Positions 41 to 9,869 of a DNA stretch of 64,000 bases are shown here, piece after piece. The stretch is from Candidatus Levyibacteriota bacterium (GTDB lineage: Bacteria; Patescibacteriota; Microgenomatia; Levybacterales; UBA12049), in the NCBI GenBank assembly GCA_052034235.1, contig JBPOIT010000008.1:79081-143080 (forward strand), written 5' to 3'. The translations under genes and the position numbers were made by a program. Each line of letters opens with the position of its first letter. Positions within the stretch are counted from its first letter, which is position 1. The notes beneath the pieces are model-generated. The model ran no database searches. It was not told where the DNA came from and saw only the letters and a list, made by a program, of their open reading frames with translations.

Positions 41-1888
41 TTGGCACTCCTAGGAGGAGGCACAGTTGCTAGCCATCTGTATGCAAAAGGTTTTGCACGA
101 AGAGAAGATATTGGAAACCATTTATTTCGAATGGCTGGTGAATTTTCTTCATTACTTCAAGTGCATTATCGTACTCATGAACGATCTCTCGCTCATTGGC
201 GGGGGATACCCTTGGGGGATATCGATCAGGTAAGTGAAAGAATATTCACTGGTAGCCGTCTTGCAATAGAAAGTAAAACAACGAAAACTGAAGCTAAAGC
301 AATTGCGACCGGTGTCACTGTCGCACAAAGTATAAATGTGTTAAACGTAGGATCTCTGCAGGAGCTTGCCATAAAACTTTTAGGTCCGACTTTTGCTGCA
401 GCATACCTTTTCCGCAGAATCCGCAAAGAACGATCAGGCGATACTGTAAAACAGTATATAGCTGACCAGAATGATTTGCTCTCTGAAGCTCAACGGATTA
501 AACGACTAATCGCTTCTGATAGAAGTGGGAGTTTGGCACTCGATCTTAATGCAGAGACGGATCTAGGAGAAAGACGCAGGGCACTTGTAGGATCTGTACA
601 AAAGAGTCGAGTCCATACAAAAGGTGCTATCGAAAAAACTCCCTGGTATCTTGCACTAGGTACAACCCTTGCAGATTATACCGCTGATGTTCCTCCAGGT
701 GTCGGTTCATTGATCACAGGAGGTATTATAGTATCAGCTCTCAGTTCCTTTGATGATGAATTTACTCGACTAAGAACAGATGAGGTCCGCAAAATAGAGT
801 TAGGTCACTTGGTTGAATTAATAGATGAAATTGAACTTTCTGAACATCGTATTCCTACACGCATAGAAAGAACTGCAATTATGGATAGATATAAGTTTCA
901 AGAAATTGAAACGCGGGAAGAGGTTTTAGATGCAATGAGAAACCATGCTCTAATTATTGCTGGACTAGATAATGGCGCAGTAATGAACCGGAAAGTCTTA
1001 GTTGATAAACCTATTTTTCTTTTTCCAGGAATTTCTTTTGTTAATGCTCCCTCTGGAACAGGAAAATCTGAATTTTTGAGAATGATTGCGCTGGAACAAG
1101 GAAATATTGCTCGAATACAAATTACCATGGGAGCTGATTTTAGAGAGATTCGTCACGATTTGCTTCCTGAGATTGTTACGCTCGTTGAAGCAGTTCCACA
1201 AAGCACTGAAACAACTATAGCTGAACAAATGGTACCTTTTGTTATGGAAAAAGGGGATAACGCATTTAAAGATGCTCTTCGCGGACTTGAGAATGACAAA
1301 ACCATATCGCGTAAATATGGTAGACATTCTACGAATAACGTCTTGAATAGACTCTTTACTGAACATTATCAGAGACAAGCATTACTCCAAATTTGGGTTG
1401 AAGATCCTTCATTTGTAAGTGGATCGGTCGTAGGTTTGGCAAATACACTGCTCAATACTGCCTTTATGAAGGTCATACAATCCTTAATACCTTCAATTAA
1501 TACACCTGAAGAAGCTGCTGCATATCTCCAAAGAAAACCTGGTGCCTCAAAAGGCACTTCTACCGGTGAAGCACAGCGTTGGGAATTATGTAAAGCACTA
1601 CTAAAAGAAAGAGCTGTGCTTCTTCTTGACGAACCGACTGGAAACCTCGATTCACATGAAGAAGACTCTTCACTTGATCATGTAGCCAACTCTTTAATCG
1701 CATATCAGAAGCGTTACCCACATACAGTCATTCTCATTGCAACCAACGATAGAACACTCCAAACGAAATTAATTCAAGCATCACAAGCCGATGTTTTACA
1801 ACAGAGATTTCCACTCGTTGATAAACTTATTCAAGCAGAAGATACTGGCAAAAGCATTATATGGAGAGCCGAACCATTGATAGTTTAA
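41..1888 (+). CDS. ABC-type ATPase domain protein with ~320 aa unknown N-terminal domain; probably 5'-partial (frame open from window position 2, annotated start is TTG)
   Basis: C-terminal half has Walker A NAPSGTGKSEF, ABC signature-like STGEAQRW and Walker B/D-loop LLLDEPTGNLD; ~175 aa between Walker A and signature (longer than canonical ABC); no in-frame stop between pos 2 and 41. Confidence 0.5.
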   Translation: MALLGGGTVASHLYAKGFARREDIGNHLFRMAGEFSSLLQVHYRTHERSLAHWRGIPLGDIDQVSERIFTGSRLAIESKTTKTEAKAIATGVTVAQSINVLNVGSLQELAIKLLGPTFAAAYLFRRIRKERSGDTVKQYIADQNDLLSEAQRIKRLIASDRSGSLALDLNAETDLGERRRALVGSVQKSRVHTKGAIEKTPWYLALGTTLADYTADVPPGVGSLITGGIIVSALSSFDDEFTRLRTDEVRKIELGHLVELIDEIELSEHRIPTRIERTAIMDRYKFQEIETREEVLDAMRNHALIIAGLDNGAVMNRKVLVDKPIFLFPGISFVNAPSGTGKSEFLRMIALEQGNIARIQITMGADFREIRHDLLPEIVTLVEAVPQSTETTIAEQMVPFVMEKGDNAFKDALRGLENDKTISRKYGRHSTNNVLNRLFTEHYQRQALLQIWVEDPSFVSGSVVGLANTLLNTAFMKVIQSLIPSINTPEEAAAYLQRKPGASKGTSTGEAQRWELCKALLKERAVLLLDEPTGNLDSHEEDSSLDHVANSLIAYQKRYPHTVILIATNDRTLQTKLIQASQADVLQQRFPLVDKLIQAEDTGKSIIWRAEPLIV

Positions 1889-1954: not shown

Positions 1955-2036
1955 GCGGATGTGGTGAAATGGTAGACACGCAAGTTTTAGGAACTTGTGC
2001 CCAAAAGGTGTGGAGGTTCGAGTCCTCTCATCCGCA
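1955..2036 (+). tRNA. tRNA-Leu (anticodon UAG), class II with long variable arm
   Basis: Cloverleaf folded by hand: acceptor GCGGATG/CATCCGC, 3-bp D stem, anticodon stem CAAGT/ACTTG, loop TTTAGGA (U33, anticodon TAG, G37), 14-nt variable arm, T stem GGAGG/CCTCT with TTCGAGT loop, discriminator A; CCA not encoded. Confidence 0.85.
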
Positions 2037-2055
2037 CAAAAGGTTGTTATACCTT

Positions 2056-2937
2056 TCAAGTGGTTACTATTGGTTTCATTTTATTACTAAAAAGAGTTAT
2101 TGGATTAGCTACTAAAATTTGTTTTCTTGTAGGATCATCTTGCCCCAAAAGTGTAATAGGCCAGAGATCTGCCTCATATGGTGGAACCCATCCTAAATCT
2201 GTCCCAGCTAAAATCCTGTCTGGTCTTTCTTCACACATAGTAAAAAATGCATTTTTAGCTCGTTCGTTCCATTCTGTTATGTTTGGGTGTACCGTTACTG
2301 TTCTTCTTCCTGTGTCAGGATCGAATCGTCGAGATTCTCCTATTTGATGCATACACGTTGTGTTTAGATAAACACGATCTTCCTTTGTTGCAAATTCGAC
2401 TGCTTCATCCATATATTTAGGGTCAAGCCCGCCAAAATGAGCGAGGATAAGTGTAAGATTTGGAAATCGTTTTAGAACATCTTTGCTCATTGCTACTGAA
2501 TTAAAATCTTGACCAGATCCAGCTGCATGGAGCAAAAATGGAATTTTATTTTTTTGCGCAATATCATAATAAGGATAATACCGTGGATCATCCATAGGAA
2601 TCCTAAAGAGCGCAGGATGAGACTTTATACCAACAACAAACTCTTTACCTGCAAGCATTTCAATCTCTTCTGGTTTGTCAGCCTTGGAGCTGAATTCAGA
2701 TTCTTCGTTAGGGTTTGCCATGAGATACATACCAAGAAAACGTGGATCATCTATTACTTTCTCTAAAGTCGCTTTATTCTTTTTAGCAGAAAAAGGAATC
2801 GTGAGAAATCCTGTGTCACTAAATTCCGGAGCGTGGAAGTATCCAGTTGTATCACCAATACCCAGTCGTCTTGATTTTCCTAGAAATGTATGTGTATCAA
2901 TTACTTGTAATTTTTGAGGACGAGTTTCTATGCTCAT
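2056..2937 (-). CDS. metal-dependent amidohydrolase (amidohydrolase-2-like TIM barrel)
   Basis: N-terminal VIDTHTF (HxH metal site), later ILAHFGG and HAAGSG motifs typical of amidohydrolase-2 family; 293 aa. Confidence 0.55.
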   Translation of the reverse strand: MSIETRPQKLQVIDTHTFLGKSRRLGIGDTTGYFHAPEFSDTGFLTIPFSAKKNKATLEKVIDDPRFLGMYLMANPNEESEFSSKADKPEEIEMLAGKEFVVGIKSHPALFRIPMDDPRYYPYYDIAQKNKIPFLLHAAGSGQDFNSVAMSKDVLKRFPNLTLILAHFGGLDPKYMDEAVEFATKEDRVYLNTTCMHQIGESRRFDPDTGRRTVTVHPNITEWNERAKNAFFTMCEERPDRILAGTDLGWVPPYEADLWPITLLGQDDPTRKQILVANPITLFSNKMKPIVTT

Positions 2938-2965
2938 AGCAAAGGTATAATAATGTGCTAGTCAG

Positions 2966-3874
2966 TTACTTTGGCAAATAAGCCAATAGTCTTTCGACAT
3001 CTGGTTGCTCCATTTCAAATGAAAGTGCGGCAAGATTTTCTCTCATGTGCATCGGATTTTTTGTCTGAACCAAGGGTACCGCTCCCCATTCATAAACAGC
3101 GCGAATTCCCACTTGAGCTGGAGTCATGTTATATTTATAAGCTATTTCTGTTACAACATCGCTAGCATCCTGACTCCCAGTCAGTCCTCTGTTTAGCGCG
3201 GCTGATGCCTCAAAAACAATGCCATTAGCACGACATATCTTACGAGTTTCAGCTGCATCTGGACGAGGATTTGCTAAATTCACTTTAGCTTGATACACAC
3301 TTACTGTACCACCTACTTTATCAACCTCGTCAATTGCAAGTCCTAATTCATCTGGCCGCAGATTACTTAACCCAACTGAACGTGCATGACCAATCTTTAC
3401 AGCAGCAACTAAGCCTTTTACTCCCACAAGCATATCTTGTTCACGGTCTTCCCACCTATTGTGCAAAAAGAGAACATTTGGAACTCTACCAAGTCTTTCC
3501 CTGCTTTTTTGAGCAGCATCAATTATATAATCATACGGAGAAGTTCCAGTATCGGGTGGTATTATACCTACTTTGGTTGCAATAGTTAACTGTTCGTGTG
3601 GGAATGCTAGGATAGCCCTGCGGACAGCTAATTCTGATGCTCCATATGCCTGAGCGGTATCTATATGATGAAACCCAAGACCGATTGCAATTCTCAATAA
3701 TCCAGTATCTTTTTTTAAATCACCAGGTAGCGCAGGAAACATTTTTGTTTTTTGATCTTGCTCAGTGCCCGCAGCATATGCTGCTGTTCCAAAACCTATA
3801 GGATTACCAATTATATTTGATATGTTAACTCCTGAATCTGGCAATCCACCACCAGTATATTTCTCATGTCCCAT
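2966..3874 (-). CDS. aldo/keto reductase family oxidoreductase
   Basis: GFGTAAYA, HIDTAQAYGASE, LFLHNRWED motifs characteristic of AKR superfamily; 302 aa. Confidence 0.7.
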   Translation of the reverse strand: MGHEKYTGGGLPDSGVNISNIIGNPIGFGTAAYAAGTEQDQKTKMFPALPGDLKKDTGLLRIAIGLGFHHIDTAQAYGASELAVRRAILAFPHEQLTIATKVGIIPPDTGTSPYDYIIDAAQKSRERLGRVPNVLFLHNRWEDREQDMLVGVKGLVAAVKIGHARSVGLSNLRPDELGLAIDEVDKVGGTVSVYQAKVNLANPRPDAAETRKICRANGIVFEASAALNRGLTGSQDASDVVTEIAYKYNMTPAQVGIRAVYEWGAVPLVQTKNPMHMRENLAALSFEMEQPDVERLLAYLPK

Positions 3875-4007
3875 AGCAGTATTATAGCAATTTTTTTACA
3901 AAATGGAAGTACTTCGAATGTATAACGGAAATATAACCTATCACACCGGGAGTAATGAACATTGAAGATTTTCTGGTTTCCACAAACGTTGATGAGATGA
4001 TGATATG

Positions 4008-4039
4008 AGGTGTGGAGGTTCAAGTCCTCTCATCCGCAC
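4008..4039. repeat. direct repeat: copy of the 3' 32 nt of tRNA-Leu (end of variable arm + T arm + acceptor 3' strand), 1 mismatch
   Basis: aggtgtggaggttcaagtcctctcatccgcac vs tRNA 2005-2036 aggtgtggaggttcgagtcctctcatccgcac. Confidence 0.8.
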
Positions 4040-4095
4040 TAGACCGGACATCGTGTTCGGAAGAACTCGAATAGCTTGATATATAGGGCTAATTA
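4040..4095. repeat. 56-nt unit (tagaccggacatcGtgttcgga...) repeated at 4924-4979 (~49/56 identical)
   Basis: Direct sequence comparison of the two intergenic regions. Confidence 0.8.
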
Positions 4096-4158
4096 AAACT
4101 AGACATAAACCATTACATTCTATCCTCCAAAAATTAATAGCAATTTAGCCTCAGAAAT

Positions 4159-4177
4159 GGTTCAAGTCCTCTCATCC
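4159..4177. repeat. second short copy of tRNA-Leu T-arm fragment ggttcaagtcctctcatcc
   Basis: identical to 4018-4036; a third copy tggttcaagtcctctc at 5041-5056. Confidence 0.75.
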
Positions 4178-4275
4178 TGTTTTTCCATAAATCGATAGAT
4201 GTAATTTTCTAAATACTATTGCCAATACGAGCTTAATATATTGACAAAAGGTATGTTATGTCATAAAATCTATAA

Positions 4276-4560
4276 GTGAAATATTTTGATTGGGATAAAG
4301 AGAAGAATGAGCGCTTAAGGATAGAACGTGATATATGCTTTGAAGATATCCTTACTATTCTTGAAGAGAAAGACTTTCTCGATGTCGTAGAGCATCCTAA
4401 TACAATAAAATATCCTAATCAAAAAATGTTTGTGATAGAATGGGATGAATATGTATATTTAGTTCCATTTGTCGAAGATGAGGAAAAGTATTTTTTAAAA
4501 ACTATTATTCCAAGCAGAAAAGCCACAAAGCAATATTTAGAAAAGAAAAAATTACTATGA
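4276..4560 (+). CDS. brnT: BrnT-like toxin (DUF497 RNase, type II TA)
   Basis: GTG start; N-terminal YFDWDKEKNERL and C-terminal IIPSRKATKQYLEKKK resemble BrnT family consensus (FEWD...IISARKAT.KE...Y); 4-nt ATGA overlap with downstream antitoxin. Confidence 0.6.
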   Translation: MKYFDWDKEKNERLRIERDICFEDILTILEEKDFLDVVEHPNTIKYPNQKMFVIEWDEYVYLVPFVEDEEKYFLKTIIPSRKATKQYLEKKKLL

Positions 4561-4817
4561 AATATTACGAATTACCAAAAGAAGAACAAGAATTACTTGA
4601 AGAGTACGAAAAAGGAGAATTTAAAAGTGTTTCCGATCTTAAAACAGTAAAGGAACAATTTTCCCAAATTGCCAAGAATACTCTAAATAAAGCGAGAAAT
4701 ATCAATATTAGACTTTCAGAGAAAGATTTAGTATTGCTTAAAAGAAAAGCTGTAGAGGAAGGTATTCCCTATCAGACACTTGTATCTTCTGTTCTACACA
4801 AATTTGTAAGTAAATAA
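4557..4817 (+). CDS. brnA: BrnA-like antitoxin (ribbon-helix-helix)
   Basis: C-terminal INIRLSEKDLVLLKRKAVEEGIPYQTLVSSVLHKF matches BrnA RHH pattern (ISIRLPxxxLxxLKxxAxxxGxPYQSLIKxxL); overlaps brnT by 4 nt. Confidence 0.6.
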   Translation: MKYYELPKEEQELLEEYEKGEFKSVSDLKTVKEQFSQIAKNTLNKARNINIRLSEKDLVLLKRKAVEEGIPYQTLVSSVLHKFVSK

Positions 4818-4862
4818 ACATTAATTATTTTCTACGATTTATAGTTTTCTTCGGCTTGATAC

Positions 4863-4923
4863 GCTTCCATAAATTTAATAAGTTGAGCTAGTAATGGTTC
4901 AAAATAAAACCGCTCTTCCGCAC
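4863..4923. repeat. 61-nt repeat ending in degenerate tRNA 3'-end copy (ggttcaaaataaaaccgctcttccgcac); second copy at 6228-6288
   Basis: gcttccataaattt[A/G]ataag...ttcaaaataaaaccgctcttccgcac in both; ~53/61 identical. Confidence 0.8.
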
Positions 4924-4979
4924 TAGACCGGACATCCTGTTCGGATAACCTCGAATAGCTTGATAAATAGGGTTAATTG
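4924..4979. repeat. second copy of the 56-nt tagaccggacatc... unit
   Basis: see 4040-4095. Confidence 0.8.
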
Positions 4980-5040
4980 TAAGCAGTTTAATTCTATATT
5001 GGGCTACTTATAATAAATTATTAAAATTCTAGCCTTATAA

Positions 5041-5056
5041 TGGTTCAAGTCCTCTC
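5041..5056. repeat. third short tRNA-Leu T-arm fragment copy (tggttcaagtcctctc)
   Basis: match to 4158-4173 and to tRNA T arm. Confidence 0.6.
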
Positions 5057-5128
5057 TTTTCATTATAATCTTACCGCTTGACAAATGGGTATTATATAGG
5101 TACTATATGGGTAGTCGTTTTTGAACTT

Positions 5129-6175
5129 ATGTTTACACCCTACTTTACTATCACTCCTAAAATAACAAAAGATATTGAATTAATAGGTCAAATATTTGGA
5201 TATTTTCGTGCTGTCACACTTCCCCTTGGCTACAGAAAAGAACTTATTACTAAAGTTACTGCAGAAACAGTGCATGCCTCAACAGCAATAGAAGGGAATA
5301 CTCTAACTGAGAAACAAGTGCAAGAAGTATTAGCAGGAAAAGAGATACATGCGGAGGATCAAGATATTAAAGAAATCATCAATTATAATAGCGCACTTGA
5401 TTATATTGAAAAAATTGTAAAAGATACGAAAGAACTAGTAATTACAGAGGTATTAATCAAAGAAATTAATTTTATTATTCTTAAAAATATACGAGATGAT
5501 ATTTCAGGAGCATATAGAACTGGACAGGTGCGTGTTGGCGACTATGTGCCTCCTGATCATTTGAAAGTGCCAACTTTAATGTCTGAATTTATACAATGGA
5601 TCAAAGATCCTCTGCCTACTTCTCTATCACCTATTCTCTATACAGGTATTGCGCATTATCAATTTGTTGCGATTCATCCATTCACTGATGGCAATGGAAG
5701 AACGACACGCATTTTGACTACACTTATGCTTGCTCTCAATGGATATGATATGACAAGTTTCTTTGCTCTCGAGAGTTATTACAACCGAAATAGAAAAGCT
5801 TATTATGAAGCTCTTAACTCTGCTGATAAATATAGAATAAACGGAGAACCTGATTTAACTAGATGGCTTGAATATTATGTAGAAGGAATGCTTATAGAGG
5901 CAACACGTGCAAAATCACGAATTGAAGAATTGCACGAAAAAAGTAAAATGGTTAGTGATAAAGCTTGGCTAAGTGACATTCAGATTAAGATGCTCAAGCT
6001 TACGATAAAACAAGGCAAGGTAAAAACAGCAGATTATCTGCTTGTTTCAGGATTGAGCAGAAAAGGCACGTATAATGCTTTGGAGAAGCTAGTACAAGAA
6101 GGACTTATAAGCAGGAATGGAACGAATAAAGGAGCATATTATACGGTTACTGAAAAAGGATTAACGTATCGATAA
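5129..6175 (+). CDS. Fic/Doc family protein (class II, internal inhibitory motif), C-terminal winged-helix-like tail
   Basis: Fic active-site motif HPFTDGNGRTTR; upstream inhibitory-helix motif S-T-A-I-E-G-N ([ST]xxxE[GN]); ATG at 5129 preferred over TTG at 5078 which lies inside the repeat; TTGACA-17-TACTAT promoter at 5078-5106. Confidence 0.75.
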   Translation: MFTPYFTITPKITKDIELIGQIFGYFRAVTLPLGYRKELITKVTAETVHASTAIEGNTLTEKQVQEVLAGKEIHAEDQDIKEIINYNSALDYIEKIVKDTKELVITEVLIKEINFIILKNIRDDISGAYRTGQVRVGDYVPPDHLKVPTLMSEFIQWIKDPLPTSLSPILYTGIAHYQFVAIHPFTDGNGRTTRILTTLMLALNGYDMTSFFALESYYNRNRKAYYEALNSADKYRINGEPDLTRWLEYYVEGMLIEATRAKSRIEELHEKSKMVSDKAWLSDIQIKMLKLTIKQGKVKTADYLLVSGLSRKGTYNALEKLVQEGLISRNGTNKGAYYTVTEKGLTYR

Positions 6176-6227
6176 ACGTCTACTAATGGTCTATATTAAG
6201 TCCAATGATACCTTTTCAACCTGATAG

Positions 6228-6288
6228 GCTTCCATAAATTTGATAAGATGAGCCAGAAGTAGTTCAAAATAAAACCGCTCTTCCGCAC
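6228..6288. repeat. copy of the 61-nt repeat with degenerate tRNA 3' end; right boundary of the cassette array
   Basis: see 4863-4923. Confidence 0.8.
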
Positions 6289-6305
6289 AAATGTTTGCAT
6301 CGACT

Positions 6306-8075
6306 TTAATCTTTACGTGGTTCAGAAAGTTTATCTACTAACATCTGCATCGAAGGAGCATAGGTTACACCCTCTTGCGTAAAATGAAATGCGTAGTTTA
6401 TAGATCCAACTGAACCACCATCAGTCGTGTATGAAGCTGCATCAGCAATGTTATACATCATTAGCAATTGGAGCATCTCACTATACCCCATACCAGCTTC
6501 ATGAGCCATACCTTCAATTTCTTTTTTTGTCCTCTCAATACTATCATCGATTTTATCTTGCACAACTGGATTAGCAATAAGAGCACGTAGTCTTGTACTT
6601 CTTGAGCCGAAGTGCAGTACTGTTCCATATTTTTTAAGCAATACTCCTACAGGATTCTCTCGTTCGAGTACTGTCGATGCAATTTTCATTTCACCATCAG
6701 TTGCACCAGCCATTTCAAGTACCCTAGTTCCAATGAGAGTATTGAAATAATGTTGAGAAGCTTTGTAATGTTTTGCTAAAGGTTTACCTATATCGTGAAG
6801 CGCCAATAACAATCTATAGAAAGTCTTGCGAACATTTCCTGGGAGCTCCTCTAGCTTTCCAAAAATTTTTTCATGCTCTATCATTGTTGATAATGTATTG
6901 TAATGCAAAGTTTGCCCCTCCCAATTTGAGATCTGGGCATACTGTTCAGATAAGAAAGCTGATTGACTAAGTGCATCGATGACATGTTGGGGATGATAGT
7001 CTTGCCCCATTCTTCCATCCGCTATGTCTAAAATATCACGGGGAACAGATTCATAATCTGCTTCCTGCAATGTCATTCTGCGTTTCTCACCAGTTTTAAA
7101 TTGCTTTTCTATACGCGTATTCCGTTGTAATATCGTGTGTTGTTCTGTAGGGAAATGGCTTGCATGAAGGTCTACGCATTCTATTGGCAATACTGGAATA
7201 GTTACTCCACTATCTATTGCTTTATTTTTTACCATTTCCACTTGACTTAGCGGTACCTCTAGCGCTAATAATTTCCCAGGAGGGACATCAAACATTGTTC
7301 TATCTTCAAACCTTGATAATGCAGGAACTCGATATGAACTGACCGCATCTGCGTCAAACACAGCAATAACTGGGAAATTACCTTCTATTGTAGAATATGC
7401 ATCCGCCAAATCCATATATTTTAGGTCCCTTGGAATATCCTTGCGAACCTTTCCGAACCAACCTGGTGAAAAACGTGGGCCGTCTTTTACTCCGTAGTGA
7501 GTTTTTCCTACTGTATAAGCCAAAGTTAAAAATTCAGATGGTCTCATATCTAAACCTGTATCTAAGGCGAAATACATTGCCCAATCTTTTTTCGATCCAT
7601 ATTGCCAGACGAGTGGAATACCTTCTGTTTCATGTAATAGCGCGTACGATCGTGCGTAAAAACGCGCCCTGGATAGAGAAGTTGTAGGCATATTACCAGG
7701 TGTCCCTAACCAGCCATCTGGTGCTACTTGTACCCCTTCATCAAAAATTCCATCTACAATATTTGACACCTCTTCGGTATATGTACCTGGTGTACTCTCA
7801 TGAGCATATTGAAGATAACCTGTCCCATGAAAGAAACGATCTGTCCTGATCTTTTCACTGCCATATATGGATTCAATAACGGGTTTATACCTTGTGTATG
7901 CTTCACTCACACTTTTCGGAACTTCAACATTCCTTGCTTCGGTTAAATTCCGTTCTAGACTAAGATATCCTTTTATTATTTGAGTAGGTACATCAATTCT
8001 ATTTGGTAATTCTCTTCGCATAACCATAAAAATGGAATTATAACAAAACCTGTAGGTATTAACAATGACCTCCAC
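6306..8075 (-). CDS. large HD-domain phosphohydrolase-like protein with ~370 aa unknown N-terminal region
   Basis: C-terminal half carries H...LHDIGKP...H...D pattern of HD superfamily (QHVIDAL, LLLALHDIGKPLAKH); rest unrecognised; true start may be internal Met (e.g. ~8027). Confidence 0.5.
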   Translation of the reverse strand: MEVIVNTYRFCYNSIFMVMRRELPNRIDVPTQIIKGYLSLERNLTEARNVEVPKSVSEAYTRYKPVIESIYGSEKIRTDRFFHGTGYLQYAHESTPGTYTEEVSNIVDGIFDEGVQVAPDGWLGTPGNMPTTSLSRARFYARSYALLHETEGIPLVWQYGSKKDWAMYFALDTGLDMRPSEFLTLAYTVGKTHYGVKDGPRFSPGWFGKVRKDIPRDLKYMDLADAYSTIEGNFPVIAVFDADAVSSYRVPALSRFEDRTMFDVPPGKLLALEVPLSQVEMVKNKAIDSGVTIPVLPIECVDLHASHFPTEQHTILQRNTRIEKQFKTGEKRRMTLQEADYESVPRDILDIADGRMGQDYHPQHVIDALSQSAFLSEQYAQISNWEGQTLHYNTLSTMIEHEKIFGKLEELPGNVRKTFYRLLLALHDIGKPLAKHYKASQHYFNTLIGTRVLEMAGATDGEMKIASTVLERENPVGVLLKKYGTVLHFGSRSTRLRALIANPVVQDKIDDSIERTKKEIEGMAHEAGMGYSEMLQLLMMYNIADAASYTTDGGSVGSINYAFHFTQEGVTYAPSMQMLVDKLSEPRKD

Positions 8076-8099
8076 TTGGTTGATATATAAGACCTATAG

Positions 8100-8978
8100 G
8101 TGTATAATCTTCCTTTTATGATTACTCAAGAAAGACACAAACGATCCGGTGAGTATTATGCAAAAGTTCTTTGGGGAATGAGCGAACGAAGGACGAGTCG
8201 AAGAATAGATAGACTGGATGTTCCGCAAGATGACAAAGATCTTGCAAAGCAACTATTAACAAGTCACAAAAATAGGTATTCATCAGTAGCGGCCTTAGAA
8301 GTTCCACATCTAGAATTAAGCCCAACTGAGAAATTAGGTGTTGTTTTTTTTATATCTTCAATTTTTGCTGTCGATGACCTGATCGATACGAACAAAAAAA
8401 ATGGTTCTACTAACCTGTTTAGCGAACAGCTAGATACGCTTAAGGTAAGAGACACTGGAATAACAGTAGCACAGTTGCGAGACAAGGTATACGATTCCTT
8501 TGCTGGTGATAAACGTACACTTCTGGAAAGATATTATGCAAGTATGCTTGAGTTACATAACCAGGGACACGTAGCACCTGCCGGTACATATAGTTTTAAG
8601 GATGCATGGGAATACAAAGAAAATACTACTGTGCCGTTTGTAGAAACAGTTGCTGATTTAGTTGGCTTTGATGCTAATAGGCGTAATGATGTGAGTGCAG
8701 GAGCGATGGCTTTACAATTAGTTGATGATGCGAATGATATTGCACAAGATACACAAGAAAAATCAATGAATATCTATCTTGGCCTTGCAACTGATAACGG
8801 TGAATTATCACAAATAGATTGTGCACTTAGAAATAAGGACTTGACACGAACCGAACTATTCAAGGCTGCCCCGTTAACACATGCACAGTATCTAAATATA
8901 TTTGACGTAGCTGTCTCACACTTGTCAAAACCAGGTAGACGTGGAATTTTGCGAGCAATAGGGAGAATTTATATGTAG
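8100..8978 (+). CDS. isoprenoid-synthase-fold protein (class I terpene synthase / phytoene-squalene synthase-like), tentative
   Basis: Two Asp-rich motifs ~120 aa apart: FAVDDLID (DDxxD) and LVDDANDIAQDTQE (DDxxD overlapping ND..Q...E, NSE/DTE-like); ALQLVDDAND...NIYLG resembles CrtB/SQS second motif; start more likely ATG 8118 (leaderless after TTGATA-17-TATAAT promoter at 8080-8108). Confidence 0.35.
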   Translation: MYNLPFMITQERHKRSGEYYAKVLWGMSERRTSRRIDRLDVPQDDKDLAKQLLTSHKNRYSSVAALEVPHLELSPTEKLGVVFFISSIFAVDDLIDTNKKNGSTNLFSEQLDTLKVRDTGITVAQLRDKVYDSFAGDKRTLLERYYASMLELHNQGHVAPAGTYSFKDAWEYKENTTVPFVETVADLVGFDANRRNDVSAGAMALQLVDDANDIAQDTQEKSMNIYLGLATDNGELSQIDCALRNKDLTRTELFKAAPLTHAQYLNIFDVAVSHLSKPGRRGILRAIGRIYM

Positions 8979-9032
8979 AGCATTCGCACCTTGAACAACA
9001 GGTGTAAATCTATTATAATTCATTTTACACAT

Positions 9033-9869
9033 ATGGCAAAAGCAATACTTGCTCGTCAGGATGACGGGACACTTACATTGACACTTACTATCCCTCAGGA
9101 AGCGGTTAAAAAGGCTCGCACTGAAGTCGTTAAAAACATGGCTGCAGGTGCTGAACTACCTGGATTCCGCAAAGGAAAGGCTCCTGAAAAATTGGTTGAA
9201 GAAAAACTCAATCAAGATCAGGTTCGTGAAGAAATCCTTAAAAACTTACTTCCACAGATCTACACAGATGCAGTTGAAGAACATAAGATAAGGCCTATCA
9301 TGAATCCAAAACTCCATGTTGAGAAAATTGAAGACGACAAAGACTGGATTGTTACTGCATTGACCTGCGAAATGCCTGAAGTTGATCCTGGCGCTTACAA
9401 AGAAAATGTGAAGAAAATAACAGCAAAAAGTAAAATAGTTATCCCAGGTAAGGAAGAGGAAGCAAAAAAACCAAGTACAGAAGAAGTACTGAAAGTCGTT
9501 CTTGATGGAGCAAAGGTAAGTGTACCTGCAATTCTTGTTGAACAGGAAGCAGATAGATTAATTGCACAGCTTTTGGATGATATTAAACGTCTTGGACTGA
9601 GCCTTGATCAATATCTCGGTTCTACCAAGCGAAACCCTCAAGATCTGCGAGCAGAATACGCAACACGAGCAGAAAGTGATATCAAACTCGAATTTGTGCT
9701 TCAAAAAATCGCAGAAGATGCAAAGATATCAGTTGATCCAAAAGAAGTAGACGAGGCTATCACCAAGGCTAAGAGTCCTCAAGAAAAAGAGAGCATGGAA
9801 GCGAATAGATACCTTCTTGCAGGCATACTGAGACAACAGAAAACGCTTGATTTCTTAATGAATCTATGA
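9033..9869 (+). CDS. tig: trigger factor, short form lacking the PPIase domain
   Basis: N-terminal ribosome-binding signature GFRKGKAP; C-terminal arm-domain-like region; only ~279 aa so the central FKBP domain is absent; ATG at 9033 chosen over upstream in-frame start. Confidence 0.6.
   Translation: MAKAILARQDDGTLTLTLTIPQEAVKKARTEVVKNMAAGAELPGFRKGKAPEKLVEEKLNQDQVREEILKNLLPQIYTDAVEEHKIRPIMNPKLHVEKIEDDKDWIVTALTCEMPEVDPGAYKENVKKITAKSKIVIPGKEEEAKKPSTEEVLKVVLDGAKVSVPAILVEQEADRLIAQLLDDIKRLGLSLDQYLGSTKRNPQDLRAEYATRAESDIKLEFVLQKIAEDAKISVDPKEVDEAITKAKSPQEKESMEANRYLLAGILRQQKTLDFLMNL

Follow-up and report, generated by a model that had tools for sequence, protein, structure and literature searches.

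A tRNA-Leu(UAG) integration hotspot in a Candidatus Levyibacteriota genome with probable tandem, recombinase-less derivatives of large serine recombinase elements

Staphylococcal cassette chromosome elements of the SCCmec and pseudo-SCC types are built at the 3' end of rlmH, where the Ccr large serine recombinases (LSRs) insert DNA without inactivating the gene and where pseudo-elements devoid of a recombinase lie between repeated site sequences. In mycobacteriophages with integration-dependent immunity, and with the SSV1-type split integrase, attP lies in a gene of the element and integration, carried out by tyrosine integrases, alters the encoded protein. Cis-mobilizable elements (CIMEs) have lost their integration and transfer genes but kept their attL and attR sites; arranged one after another behind the 3' end of a conserved gene, they are potentially movable, but only by a recombinase that a related element supplies (PMC5704250). 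Integrative mobilizable elements (IMEs) with serine recombinases mostly integrate within genes (PMC5704250). In the tycheposons of Prochlorococcus, successive tRNA integrations push older elements inward, with partial tRNA copies between them and with degraded or cargo-only remnants, and tyrosine recombinases are used by 910 of the 937 elements and LSRs by a minority (10.1101/2020.12.28.424599). Here we analyse the DNA behind a tRNA-Leu(UAG) gene of a Candidatus Levyibacteriota bacterium (GenBank assembly GCA_052034235.1, contig JBPOIT010000008.1, positions 79,081 to 143,080; this whole stretch of 64,000 nt is referred to as the window). The 3' end of this gene is very probably a hotspot that holds, in tandem, derivatives of LSR elements that have no recombinase gene, together with one unrelated insertion.

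Three modules follow the intact tRNA-Leu(UAG) gene (1955-2037, plus strand; ARAGORN and Rfam), and Pfam bears out the gene content that had been proposed for them in an earlier reading of the letters and open reading frames (ORFs) alone (the sequence-only reading). Module 1 (2038-4007) has Amidohydro_2 (2056-2937) and Aldo_ket_red (2966-3874) genes on the minus strand; module 2 (4040-4923; 884 bp) has BrnT (4276-4560) and a CopG/BrnA antitoxin (4557-4817), CopG-type by Pfam, on the plus strand; and module 3 (4924-6288; 1365 bp) has a Fic gene, likewise on the plus strand (ATG at 5129, end at 6175), whose product matches the PADLOC SoFic defence model (E = 5.6e-61). The cargo stretches of modules 2 and 3 (4241-4817 and 5078-6175) each begin with a sigma-70-like promoter-like site, TTGACA-17-TAAAAT at 4241-4269 before BrnT (score 11/12) and TTGACA-17-TACTAT at 5078-5106 before Fic (10/12). 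The GC content is 0.28-0.35 across 4200-5800 versus 0.38-0.44 in the surroundings; the AT-richness that had been ascribed to the array as a whole thus belongs to its BrnTA/Fic part, whereas module 1 has a genome-like GC content.

The repeats around these modules could be reproduced. The last 32 nt of the tRNA recur with one mismatch at 4008-4039 (repeat finder), and 19-nt T-arm pieces are confirmed at 4159-4177, identical to 4017-4035 of that copy, and at 5042-5060 (84% identical), where we place the second one. What had been described as a more degenerate version of the tRNA end is a 28-mer (ggttcaaaataaaaccgctcttccgcac, also GGTTCAAAATAAAACCGCTCTTCCGCAC) with 27 nt identical between its copies; it lies at 4896-4923 and 6261-6288, one base off the earlier positions, and is the end of a 74-nt repeat (4850-4923 and 6215-6288; 86% identical). 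We term unit B the 61-nt unit that leads into this 28-mer and unit A the repeat first described as a 56-nt unit (tagaccggacatc..., also TAGACCGGACATC...), at 4040-4094 and 4924-4978, which together with the preceding core makes up a 69-nt repeat (4026-4094 and 4910-4978; 88% identical). A junction of ~210 nt is repeated between the cassettes, which lie in one orientation. None of the repeats occurs elsewhere in the 64-kb window, and shuffled controls gave about zero matches. Positions 3962-4007 also bear a weak resemblance to unit B, and 2038-2060 to the host flank; neither is considered established.

Unit A is, as judged from homology, the last ~19 codons and the right arm (P') of an LSR gene. 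In one locus, L024, a unit A homologue, CTCGAATAGCCTGATATAACGGGCTAAT, lies 27 nt after tRNA-Leu(UAG) and forms the 3' part of an oppositely oriented 573-aa ORF. This ORF encodes a resolvase-type N-terminus and a zinc ribbon, and its frame continues into the antisense strand of the tRNA. A Levyibacteriota locus, L035, encodes a 512-aa homologue (71% identical), also with a resolvase-type N-terminus, that ends ..ISPIYQSIRYLTEQDLPSSADERS and stop across the 3' end of tRNA-Leu(GAG), and both ORFs end ..ISP[IL]YQ.IR.. across the unit A homologue. This 512-aa protein (P0003) and more than 900 homologues (E < 1e-20), mostly from contigs that resemble the candidate phyla radiation (CPR)/Patescibacteria, have the Pfam domains Resolvase, Recombinase and Zn_ribbon_recom and hence are LSRs; the top 120 (P0003-P0122) are 65-83% identical to the query. 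On the minus strand, unit A of the window reads ..SPIYQAIR.. (4066-4093 in copy 1) and then, after a 1-nt frameshift common to both copies, ..SEHDVRSSADERT and stop. A degenerate unit A pattern was found in 58 metagenome loci, ~22 with an LSR ORF and ~36 without, and to the left of it lies either unit-B-type sequence or the 3' end of a tRNA gene (all Leu isoacceptors, Lys, Glu, Val, Gln, Pro, Arg, Gly, Met, His and Phe). The exact 19-mer of unit A and core had no match in viral or metagenome contigs. In a multiple alignment, intact LSR genes and LSR-less loci have only ~55 nt in common, namely the spacer and the last ~19 codons; a first view, in which the LSR-less loci kept an LSR remnant of ~110 nt, was given up on the strength of this alignment.

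The P' arm of an L057-type enzyme starts TAGACAGGAC, like that of the window. In copy 1 the 27-nt spacer contains a hairpin, CCGGACA-tcg-TGTTCGG, at 4044-4060; the equivalent in copy 2 lies at 4928-4944, and within the hairpin the copies differ in the loop only. Such a hairpin, 6-7 bp long and beginning 5-8 nt past the crossover or tRNA end, covaries among 16 loci, with variants such as GAGAC/GTCTC, GAGTCA/TGACTC and TTGATAG/CTATCAA besides the CCGGACA/TGTTCGG of the window. In the alignment (A4 columns 9-25), 63.5% of cells are paired versus 51% in shuffles, and the covariation score is 0.378 versus 0.204, a value reached by 0 of 500 shuffles. In intact elements this hairpin is within the LSR coding sequence.

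Unit B with its 28-mer forms the left arm, P (copy 1, 4832-4923; copy 2, 6191-6288; both minus strand), and, by its reading frame, extends the LSR ORF beyond the attachment site in an excised or tandem form. The C-termini of the LSR homologues are mostly encoded by antisense tRNA, e.g., ..S[SC]ADER[TS] and stop or ..SGAGDGNRTR..., whereas a minority, taken from independently called proteins, have other tails: P0108 ends ..DPSALYIEPALTWFTSLMEFYQNVDISMN and P0093 ends ..SCAPSGTMFEPI, each followed by a stop. The P0108 tail resembles unit B of the window read antisense in the LSR frame, which gives AEERFYFEPLLAQLIKFMEAYQAEENYKS and stop at the junction between modules 2 and 3 (j2) and AEERFYFELLLAHLIKFMEAYQVEKVSLDLI and stop at the junction between module 3 and the host flank (j3). 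The P0093 tail matches the corresponding junction of a close relative, L001, which reads CAPSGTIFEPI and stop. The tail motif, [FY]FE[PLH]xLxW[IL]xx[LM]MxxYQ plus acidic residues, is conserved in at least 10 independent loci, and a unit-B-type tail is also found in L037, L047, L054 and L069. Differences at first, second and third codon positions number 2, 2 and 8 between the two unit B copies of the window and 36, 23 and 61 summed over seven pairs. Because of this conserved in-frame tail and third-position bias, unit B and the 28-mer are coding sequence rather than a degraded copy of the tRNA end. RNAalifold on the left arms gave only an invariant 6-bp pairing, GGGCTA/TAGCCT, which is uninformative.

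The spacing of the junctions points in the same direction. The 28-mer shares with the tRNA only GGTTCAA and TCCGCAC, and at the crossover only TCCGCAC. GTTCRA stands 51 nt from unit A at 41 of 41 tRNA junctions, whereas P-type junctions have 56 nt between the two; the window, with a spacer that is 1 nt short, has 50 and 55 nt, respectively. The LSR motif for DBD2, the zinc ribbon domain, lies ~5 bp further from the centre in attP than in attB half-sites (PMC11722253), and, because the 5-nt offset of GTTCRA equals this shift, the outer-motif geometry fits the LSR rule. Two properties of an LSR element are therefore present at this locus, ends homologous to the att arms of LSR-bearing members and the 5-bp shift of the outer motif. 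The LSR gene itself is represented in the window by its frameshifted last ~19 codons only; it is found in L024, L035/L038, L037 and ~22 metagenome loci. Since their unit A and unit B arms match the ends of LSR elements, modules 2 and 3 are regarded as LSR-less mini-elements. The long direct repeat of a classical tRNA island is present for module 1 (32 nt, one mismatch) and not for modules 2 and 3.

These junctions probably arose as follows. In intact relatives the LSR gene lies right after a tRNA gene on the opposite strand, with its last codons (unit A) running to and past the terminal GCAC; in the excised form or at a tandem junction, the LSR frame crosses the crossover into unit B and gives the conserved tail of ~25-30 residues. 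On this model the 3' end of the LSR gene contains attP, and upon integration the tail is swapped for a few residues encoded by antisense tRNA (..SSADERT and stop). The partners would be attP (unit B and the 28-nt pseudo-core followed by unit A) and attB (the tRNA 3' end followed by the flank), with the last ~23 nt of the tRNA, GGTTCGAGTCCTCTCATCCGCAC, as the left half of attB and with exchange within TCCGCAC. Sequences switch identity exactly at TCCGCAC in the window, L001, L024 and L037, and we infer the exchange point there, within the terminal GCAC of the tRNA. The first junction, j1 (4008-4039, plus strand), is a true 32-nt copy of the tRNA 3' end with a TTCAAGT loop and with unit A copy 1 directly after it, and would be of the attL type. 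Unit B copy 1 and unit A copy 2, the latter being the P' arm of module 3, make up j2, which would be of the attP type between tandem elements (probable crossover GCAC, 4920-4923), and unit B copy 2 with host DNA makes up j3, which would be of the attR type. We would regard j1 as a displaced older tRNA end that serves module 2 as attL and closes module 1 on the right. Module 1 is read as an independent insertion because it has no unit A or LSR-type left arm, a true 32-nt repeat and a native-like GC content; it would have entered the tRNA later and separately, bringing its own last 32 nt and pushing the older end to 4008-4039.

The short architecture recurs elsewhere. At least 17 junctions, in different genomes, at different tRNAs and with different cargo, are LSR-less and have a P' arm of ~55 nt, a spacer, a conserved block (block 2) at 74-88 nt, a promoter, one or two genes and a P arm. 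On the other strand of L024, tRNA-Leu(CAG) is followed by unit A, a T-arm-like fragment, TTGACA-17-TATAAT, Fic and unit B with GTTCAAAATAAGAGTTCTCTTGTGCAC, and then by a second cassette with unit A, the fragment, a promoter, a ribbon-helix-helix (RHH) antitoxin and a RelE-like toxin; an intact LSR gene lies 1.5 kb away, at tRNA-Leu(UAG). In L089, there is one mini-element with an unidentified 318-aa ORF at tRNA-Leu(UAG) and another with BrnTA at tRNA-Leu(CAG). Arrays are likewise present in L079, L047 and L048 and the cassette architecture also in L054, and in L037 a promoter, BrnT, BrnA, an insertion sequence and unit B are followed directly by unit A of an intact LSR gene. The Fic-family and BrnTA cargo of the other loci is only 23-46% identical to that of the window. 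The L024 contig (DATLDE010000011.1) carries the label Candidatus Limnocylindrales (Chloroflexota). It has a tRNA-Leu cluster, glucosaminidase-like genes and an LSR element of the Levybacteria type known from L001, L035 and L089, and may have been misbinned.

By its gene content, a probable representative of the full-size parent type is L038 (1-11539; GCA_013816255.1, JACDET010000003.1, the same contig as L035), which abuts tRNA-Leu(GAG) in a Levybacteria genome. It has genes for an LSR, two small ORFs, Replic_Relax, Fic, an 827-aa TraG/VirD4-like ATPase, a T4SS_LegC2C7-like protein and TrbL and is a putative integrative conjugative element. No terminal overlaps or circular contigs were found among the 98 fetched loci. 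In viral contigs, the 26-mer of the tRNA 3' end was found mostly in phage tRNA arrays and in a few unrelated att sites, neither unit A nor unit B being present there. Att-like sites that consist of the last 26-31 nt of tRNA-Leu, without a tRNA, occur in unrelated IMG/VR contigs (L014 771-1969, L022 and L008); one of these contigs is high in GC and has a tyrosine integrase gene right beside the site, and in L014 such a gene adjoins a 30-nt copy of the tRNA end. The same tRNA end is used by unrelated integrases.

The T-arm fragments of the window are part of block 2, which spans 4144-4177 (TTTAGCCTCAGAAATGGTTCAAGTCCTCTCATCC; 76 nt from the unit A pattern) and 5027-5060 (..TAGCCTTATAATGGTTCAAGTCCTCTCTTTT), both on the plus strand. 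Its motif, TTTAGCYTCAAAAAGTGTTCRA, is present in the window (4144-4165 and ~5027-5047) and in 13 other loci, each time followed by T-arm-like sequence. All LSR-less mini-elements have block 2, counted from where the unit A pattern starts at a distance of 74-88 nt (mostly 76-78). Looked for as a possible oriT or accessory site, it was absent from the readable parts of full-size elements and was found in LSR-less mini-elements only. The TTAGCC of block 2 is the inverted complement of the GGCTAA of unit A, and its T-loop bases match the resident tRNA in the window, in L024 (CAACTC) and in L094 (tRNA-Gly, GGTTCGATTCC) but not in other loci. Block 2 may be an accessory site for the recombinase, a relic of a founding deletion or the outcome of gene conversion by the tRNA. 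A crossover in the T loop, considered as an explanation of the fragments, was rejected for j2 and j3: it would destroy the tRNA, and it does not account for the fact that the sequences of the window and L001 part exactly to the left of GCAC and agree to the right of it.

A comparison with relatives indicates that this position is polymorphic. L001, a contig of a Logan assembly, shares the tRNA without any difference, and its proteins match those of the window at 93% (HD-like), 98% (292-aa) and 98.6% identity (trigger factor, TF). Between the tRNA end ..GCAC and the flank AAAATATTTGTATCAACTTTA.., however, L001 holds only 0.85 kb with an unrelated BrnT/CopG pair in reverse orientation, and module 1 is absent. 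The variable segment ends in ..GCAC right before the conserved flank in both, and j3 and the L001 junction are divergent to the left of GCAC and match to the right. The part common to both (6289-8990 in the window) begins with the flank AAATGTTTGCATCGACTTTA.. and carries genes for an HD-like protein of 573 aa (6306-8027, minus strand) and a protein of 292 aa (8100-8978, plus strand) ahead of the TF start (ATG at 9033). As the HD-like protein is an orphan (a single homologue, 93% identical, in 5.8 billion proteins, and no match in a scan of GTDB), it was unusable for an empty-site search, and a 25-mer of the tRNA anticodon arm and TF were used instead. The 25-mer found 13 loci in GTDB, 10 or 11 of them labelled CPR/Patescibacteria and mostly Levybacteria. 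The TF start lies 14-78 nt after tRNA-Leu(UAG) in L025, L027, L028, L033, L034 and L036 and in the metagenome locus L074; the corresponding gap is 6995 nt in the window and 3.6 kb in L001. Because relatives have TF 14-78 nt after the tRNA, 2038-8990 is inserted relative to the ancestral order. The HD-like and 292-aa genes are an older layer common to L001, and the three modules are a younger, strain-specific layer.

The sequence-only reading had taken the tRNA 3' end to be a hotspot of site-specific integration with modules bounded by att-type junctions, and both views hold, the modular DNA behind the tRNA differing between close relatives. It had reasoned that a lack of polymorphism among relatives, or repeats scattered over the genome, would count against such a hotspot; the content of L001 differs and the repeats are unique within the window. 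The empty sites that it expected exist, with TF and not the HD gene close behind tRNA-Leu(UAG). Its extent of the island is right for the three modules and too short at the HD gene, since the HD and 292-aa genes also lie between the tRNA and TF; the "HD gene" itself is a true 573-aa ORF on the minus strand, and its family assignment finds no Pfam match.

Among described systems, the accretion of CIMEs with integrative conjugative elements (ICEs) and IMEs, as in ICESt1 and ICESt3 of Streptococcus thermophilus, is functionally the closest concept, and modules 2 and 3 fit the definition of a CIME: integration and transfer genes are absent, and the arms belong to an LSR family that includes an element bearing a type IV secretion system (T4SS). 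Unlike CIMEs, which have tyrosine integrases and long identical cores, they belong to an LSR family with a shared core of ~7 nt; they are also far smaller (0.9-1.4 kb), share block 2 and have promoters of their own. SCCmec is the second close analogue, with LSR-driven, recombinase-less arrays at the 3' end of a housekeeping gene. Here, however, the target is a tRNA rather than a protein gene, the LSRs presumably belong to an unrelated family, attP lies inside the recombinase ORF and the host belongs to the CPR. The separators of tycheposons are true partial tRNAs, whereas two of the three separators here are attP-type arms and not derived from the tRNA. The att sites of phage-type LSRs (LI, Bxb1 and SPbeta; PMC11722253) are likewise short and have the same motif offset of ~5 bp as GTTCRA; the target here differs in being the extreme 3' end of tRNA genes. 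In the mycobacteriophage and SSV1 cases, a repressor is affected or the whole int gene is split, whereas here the exchange concerns only the C-terminal ~25-30 residues of a serine recombinase. We know of no described case of attP within the 3' coding region of an integrase with a conserved alternative tail. In a literature search of incomplete coverage, which is weak evidence, we found no description of an LSR that has attP within its own coding region at the 3' end, and none of conjugative elements or cassettes linked to LSRs at the tRNAs of Patescibacteria.

Several observations weigh against our interpretation of the locus as tandem derivatives of LSR elements. With an LSR, one tyrosine integrase and ICE backbone proteins as tblastn queries, there was no match in the 64-kb window, in line with the earlier statement that it contains no recombinase, and Pfam found no recombinase domain in the eight ORFs between 41 and 8978. 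Neither an excised circle nor an empty attB of the exact lineage was found, and the attB sequence is a reconstruction. To our knowledge, canonical LSRs do not recombine attP with attL or attR, and the formation of a tandem array is not explained; co-integrates, homologous recombination and a relaxed enzyme are possibilities. The shared frameshift and the 88% identity of the unit A copies may reflect an in situ duplication or gene conversion of the left arm. The model does not account for the T-arm fragments (block 2). With cargo that is only 23-46% identical between loci, nothing points to a recent transfer of the same cassette, and module 1 has no recognisable relic of a recombinase, its mechanism of insertion being deduced from the 32-nt repeat only.

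With both arms and a promoter but no recombinase, the mini-elements would be movable only by an LSR acting in trans, or in cis from a neighbour, and would otherwise be fossils; that they are mobile at present is doubtful. A rival explanation, which we consider possible though short of probable, goes further and denies that the cassettes were ever mobile units: one or two conjugative LSR elements of full size would have integrated once and then been reduced in place by deletions and local duplication of a junction. The lack of a recombinase in the window, the identical frameshift in both unit A copies and the Fic cargo of the full-size L038 are all consistent with such an origin, and decay to att-flanked remnants is a documented fate of elements of this kind (PMC5704250). 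Independent erosion would not, however, be expected to produce the same short architecture in at least 17 junctions with different genomes, tRNAs and cargo. The unit B copies differ mainly at synonymous positions and so diverged while coding, in different parent elements, and a different cassette is present at the same site in the close relative L001.

The sequence-only reading had seen in all junctions progressively decayed copies of the tRNA 3' end, which could be left by a series of tyrosine integrase islands with a crossover inside the tRNA, each island restoring the tRNA end. We consider this improbable for the locus as a whole. The copy at 4008-4039 is indeed a tRNA end, flanking module 1 as a 32-nt repeat that has one mismatch; the sequence of the T-arm fragments (4159-4177 and 5042-5060) is truly tRNA-like, and a tyrosine integrase lies beside a 30-nt copy of the same tRNA end in the unrelated L014. 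The 28-mers at 4896-4923 and 6261-6288 are another matter: as parts of attP-type left arms they are 5 nt longer than the tRNA version, match it at GGTTCAA and TCCGCAC only, code in antisense, where they encode a conserved peptide in frame with the LSR remnant, and lie in arms that differ mainly at third codon positions. That they are identical to each other at 27 of 27 nt is not the product of random decay. Decay of tRNA ends is thereby refuted for modules 2 and 3; the recombinase at homologous junctions is a serine and not a tyrosine recombinase, and even module 1 holds an amidohydrolase and an aldo-keto reductase only, with no tyrosine integrase.

An integron-like platform, also suggested in that reading, would involve promoterless cassettes inserted at an attI-like site derived from the tRNA, through folded attC-like sites and with the integrase encoded elsewhere. 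The array of small, mostly single-function cassettes in one orientation with a repeated junction of ~210 nt has this appearance, and toxins and defence genes are cargo of chromosomal integrons, too. Nevertheless, the platform gene is a tRNA, IntI, attI and Pc are missing from the window, each cassette has its own sigma-70-like promoter site, no inverted repeat was listed at the junctions that would form an attC-type palindrome (the sole hairpin has 6-7 bp) and the two halves of the junctions correspond to opposite ends of an LSR gene region; we regard this explanation as highly improbable. Generic intergenic repeats (REP- or MITE-like) that resemble the tRNA end by chance are refuted almost beyond doubt, short, AT-rich and intergenic as the repeats are, by their restriction to this locus within the 64-kb window, by GTTCRA at 51 nt from unit A in 41 of the 43 cases with a tRNA detected beside unit A and by their homology to the ends of a recombinase gene.

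The tandem build-up of decayed elements behind tRNA genes is already well known, and the locus itself offers no new principle; what makes it of interest is the recombinase family, the tail switch through attP within the ORF and the cassette-like mini-elements in CPR genomes. A very large family of closely related LSRs targets the extreme 3' ends of many tRNAs, with at least one member in an element that has a T4SS and Replic_Relax. This bears on whether the T4SSs of Patescibacteria are conjugative; in a 2025 survey, most Patescibacteria T4SS clusters were without relaxases, and recombinases and tRNAs were not mentioned (PMC12102498). As attP lies in the LSR ORF, integrated and excised states would encode different C-termini, a candidate mechanism of directionality control. 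It is conceivable, although on balance unlikely, that the mini-elements are a working cassette system of non-autonomous 1-kb units, each with both arms, the covarying hairpin, block 2, a promoter and one defence or toxin-antitoxin function, moved between tRNAs by the LSR of a co-resident conjugative element, which integration would switch by removing the tail. If so, tail loss would be a built-in control of directionality or activity that has not been described for serine integrases. Recombinase-less cassettes of 1 kb also suggest how ultra-small genomes may gain and turn over defence and toxin-antitoxin genes such as SoFic and BrnTA, and the natural attP/attB pairs with conserved tRNA targets are of interest for genome engineering with LSRs.

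Some features lie outside the modules. Neither the 573-aa HD-like protein nor the 292-aa protein belongs to a Pfam or PADLOC family; both orphans are within the island and may be uncharacterised accessory or defence genes. Just upstream of TF, at 8982-8988, TTCGCAC is followed by CTTGAACAAC (TTCGCAC/CTT), which resembles the ..CGCAC/CTT.. junction of tRNA and TF in L025 and L028; it could be a relic of the oldest right-hand junction, the one that closes the HD-like/292-aa layer. The gap between tRNA-Leu(UAG) and TF in L038 (12760-15921) holds a NUDIX gene, an APH-type kinase gene, an IS200-type Y1 transposase gene and an unknown gene and is yet another content at this hotspot. Upstream of the tRNA, an ABC-type ATPase gene (41-1888, plus strand) runs off the start of the window and gives weak PADLOC matches to mad3/mad8 of methylation-associated defence. 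It is not syntenic, relatives having glucosaminidase-like genes and tRNA-Leu(CAG)/(GAG) at this position. Homology to L001 on the left of the tRNA begins only ~50 nt before it, at a conserved promoter-like TTTCCA-18-TATAAT, and the left side of the tRNA may also have been rearranged or invaded.

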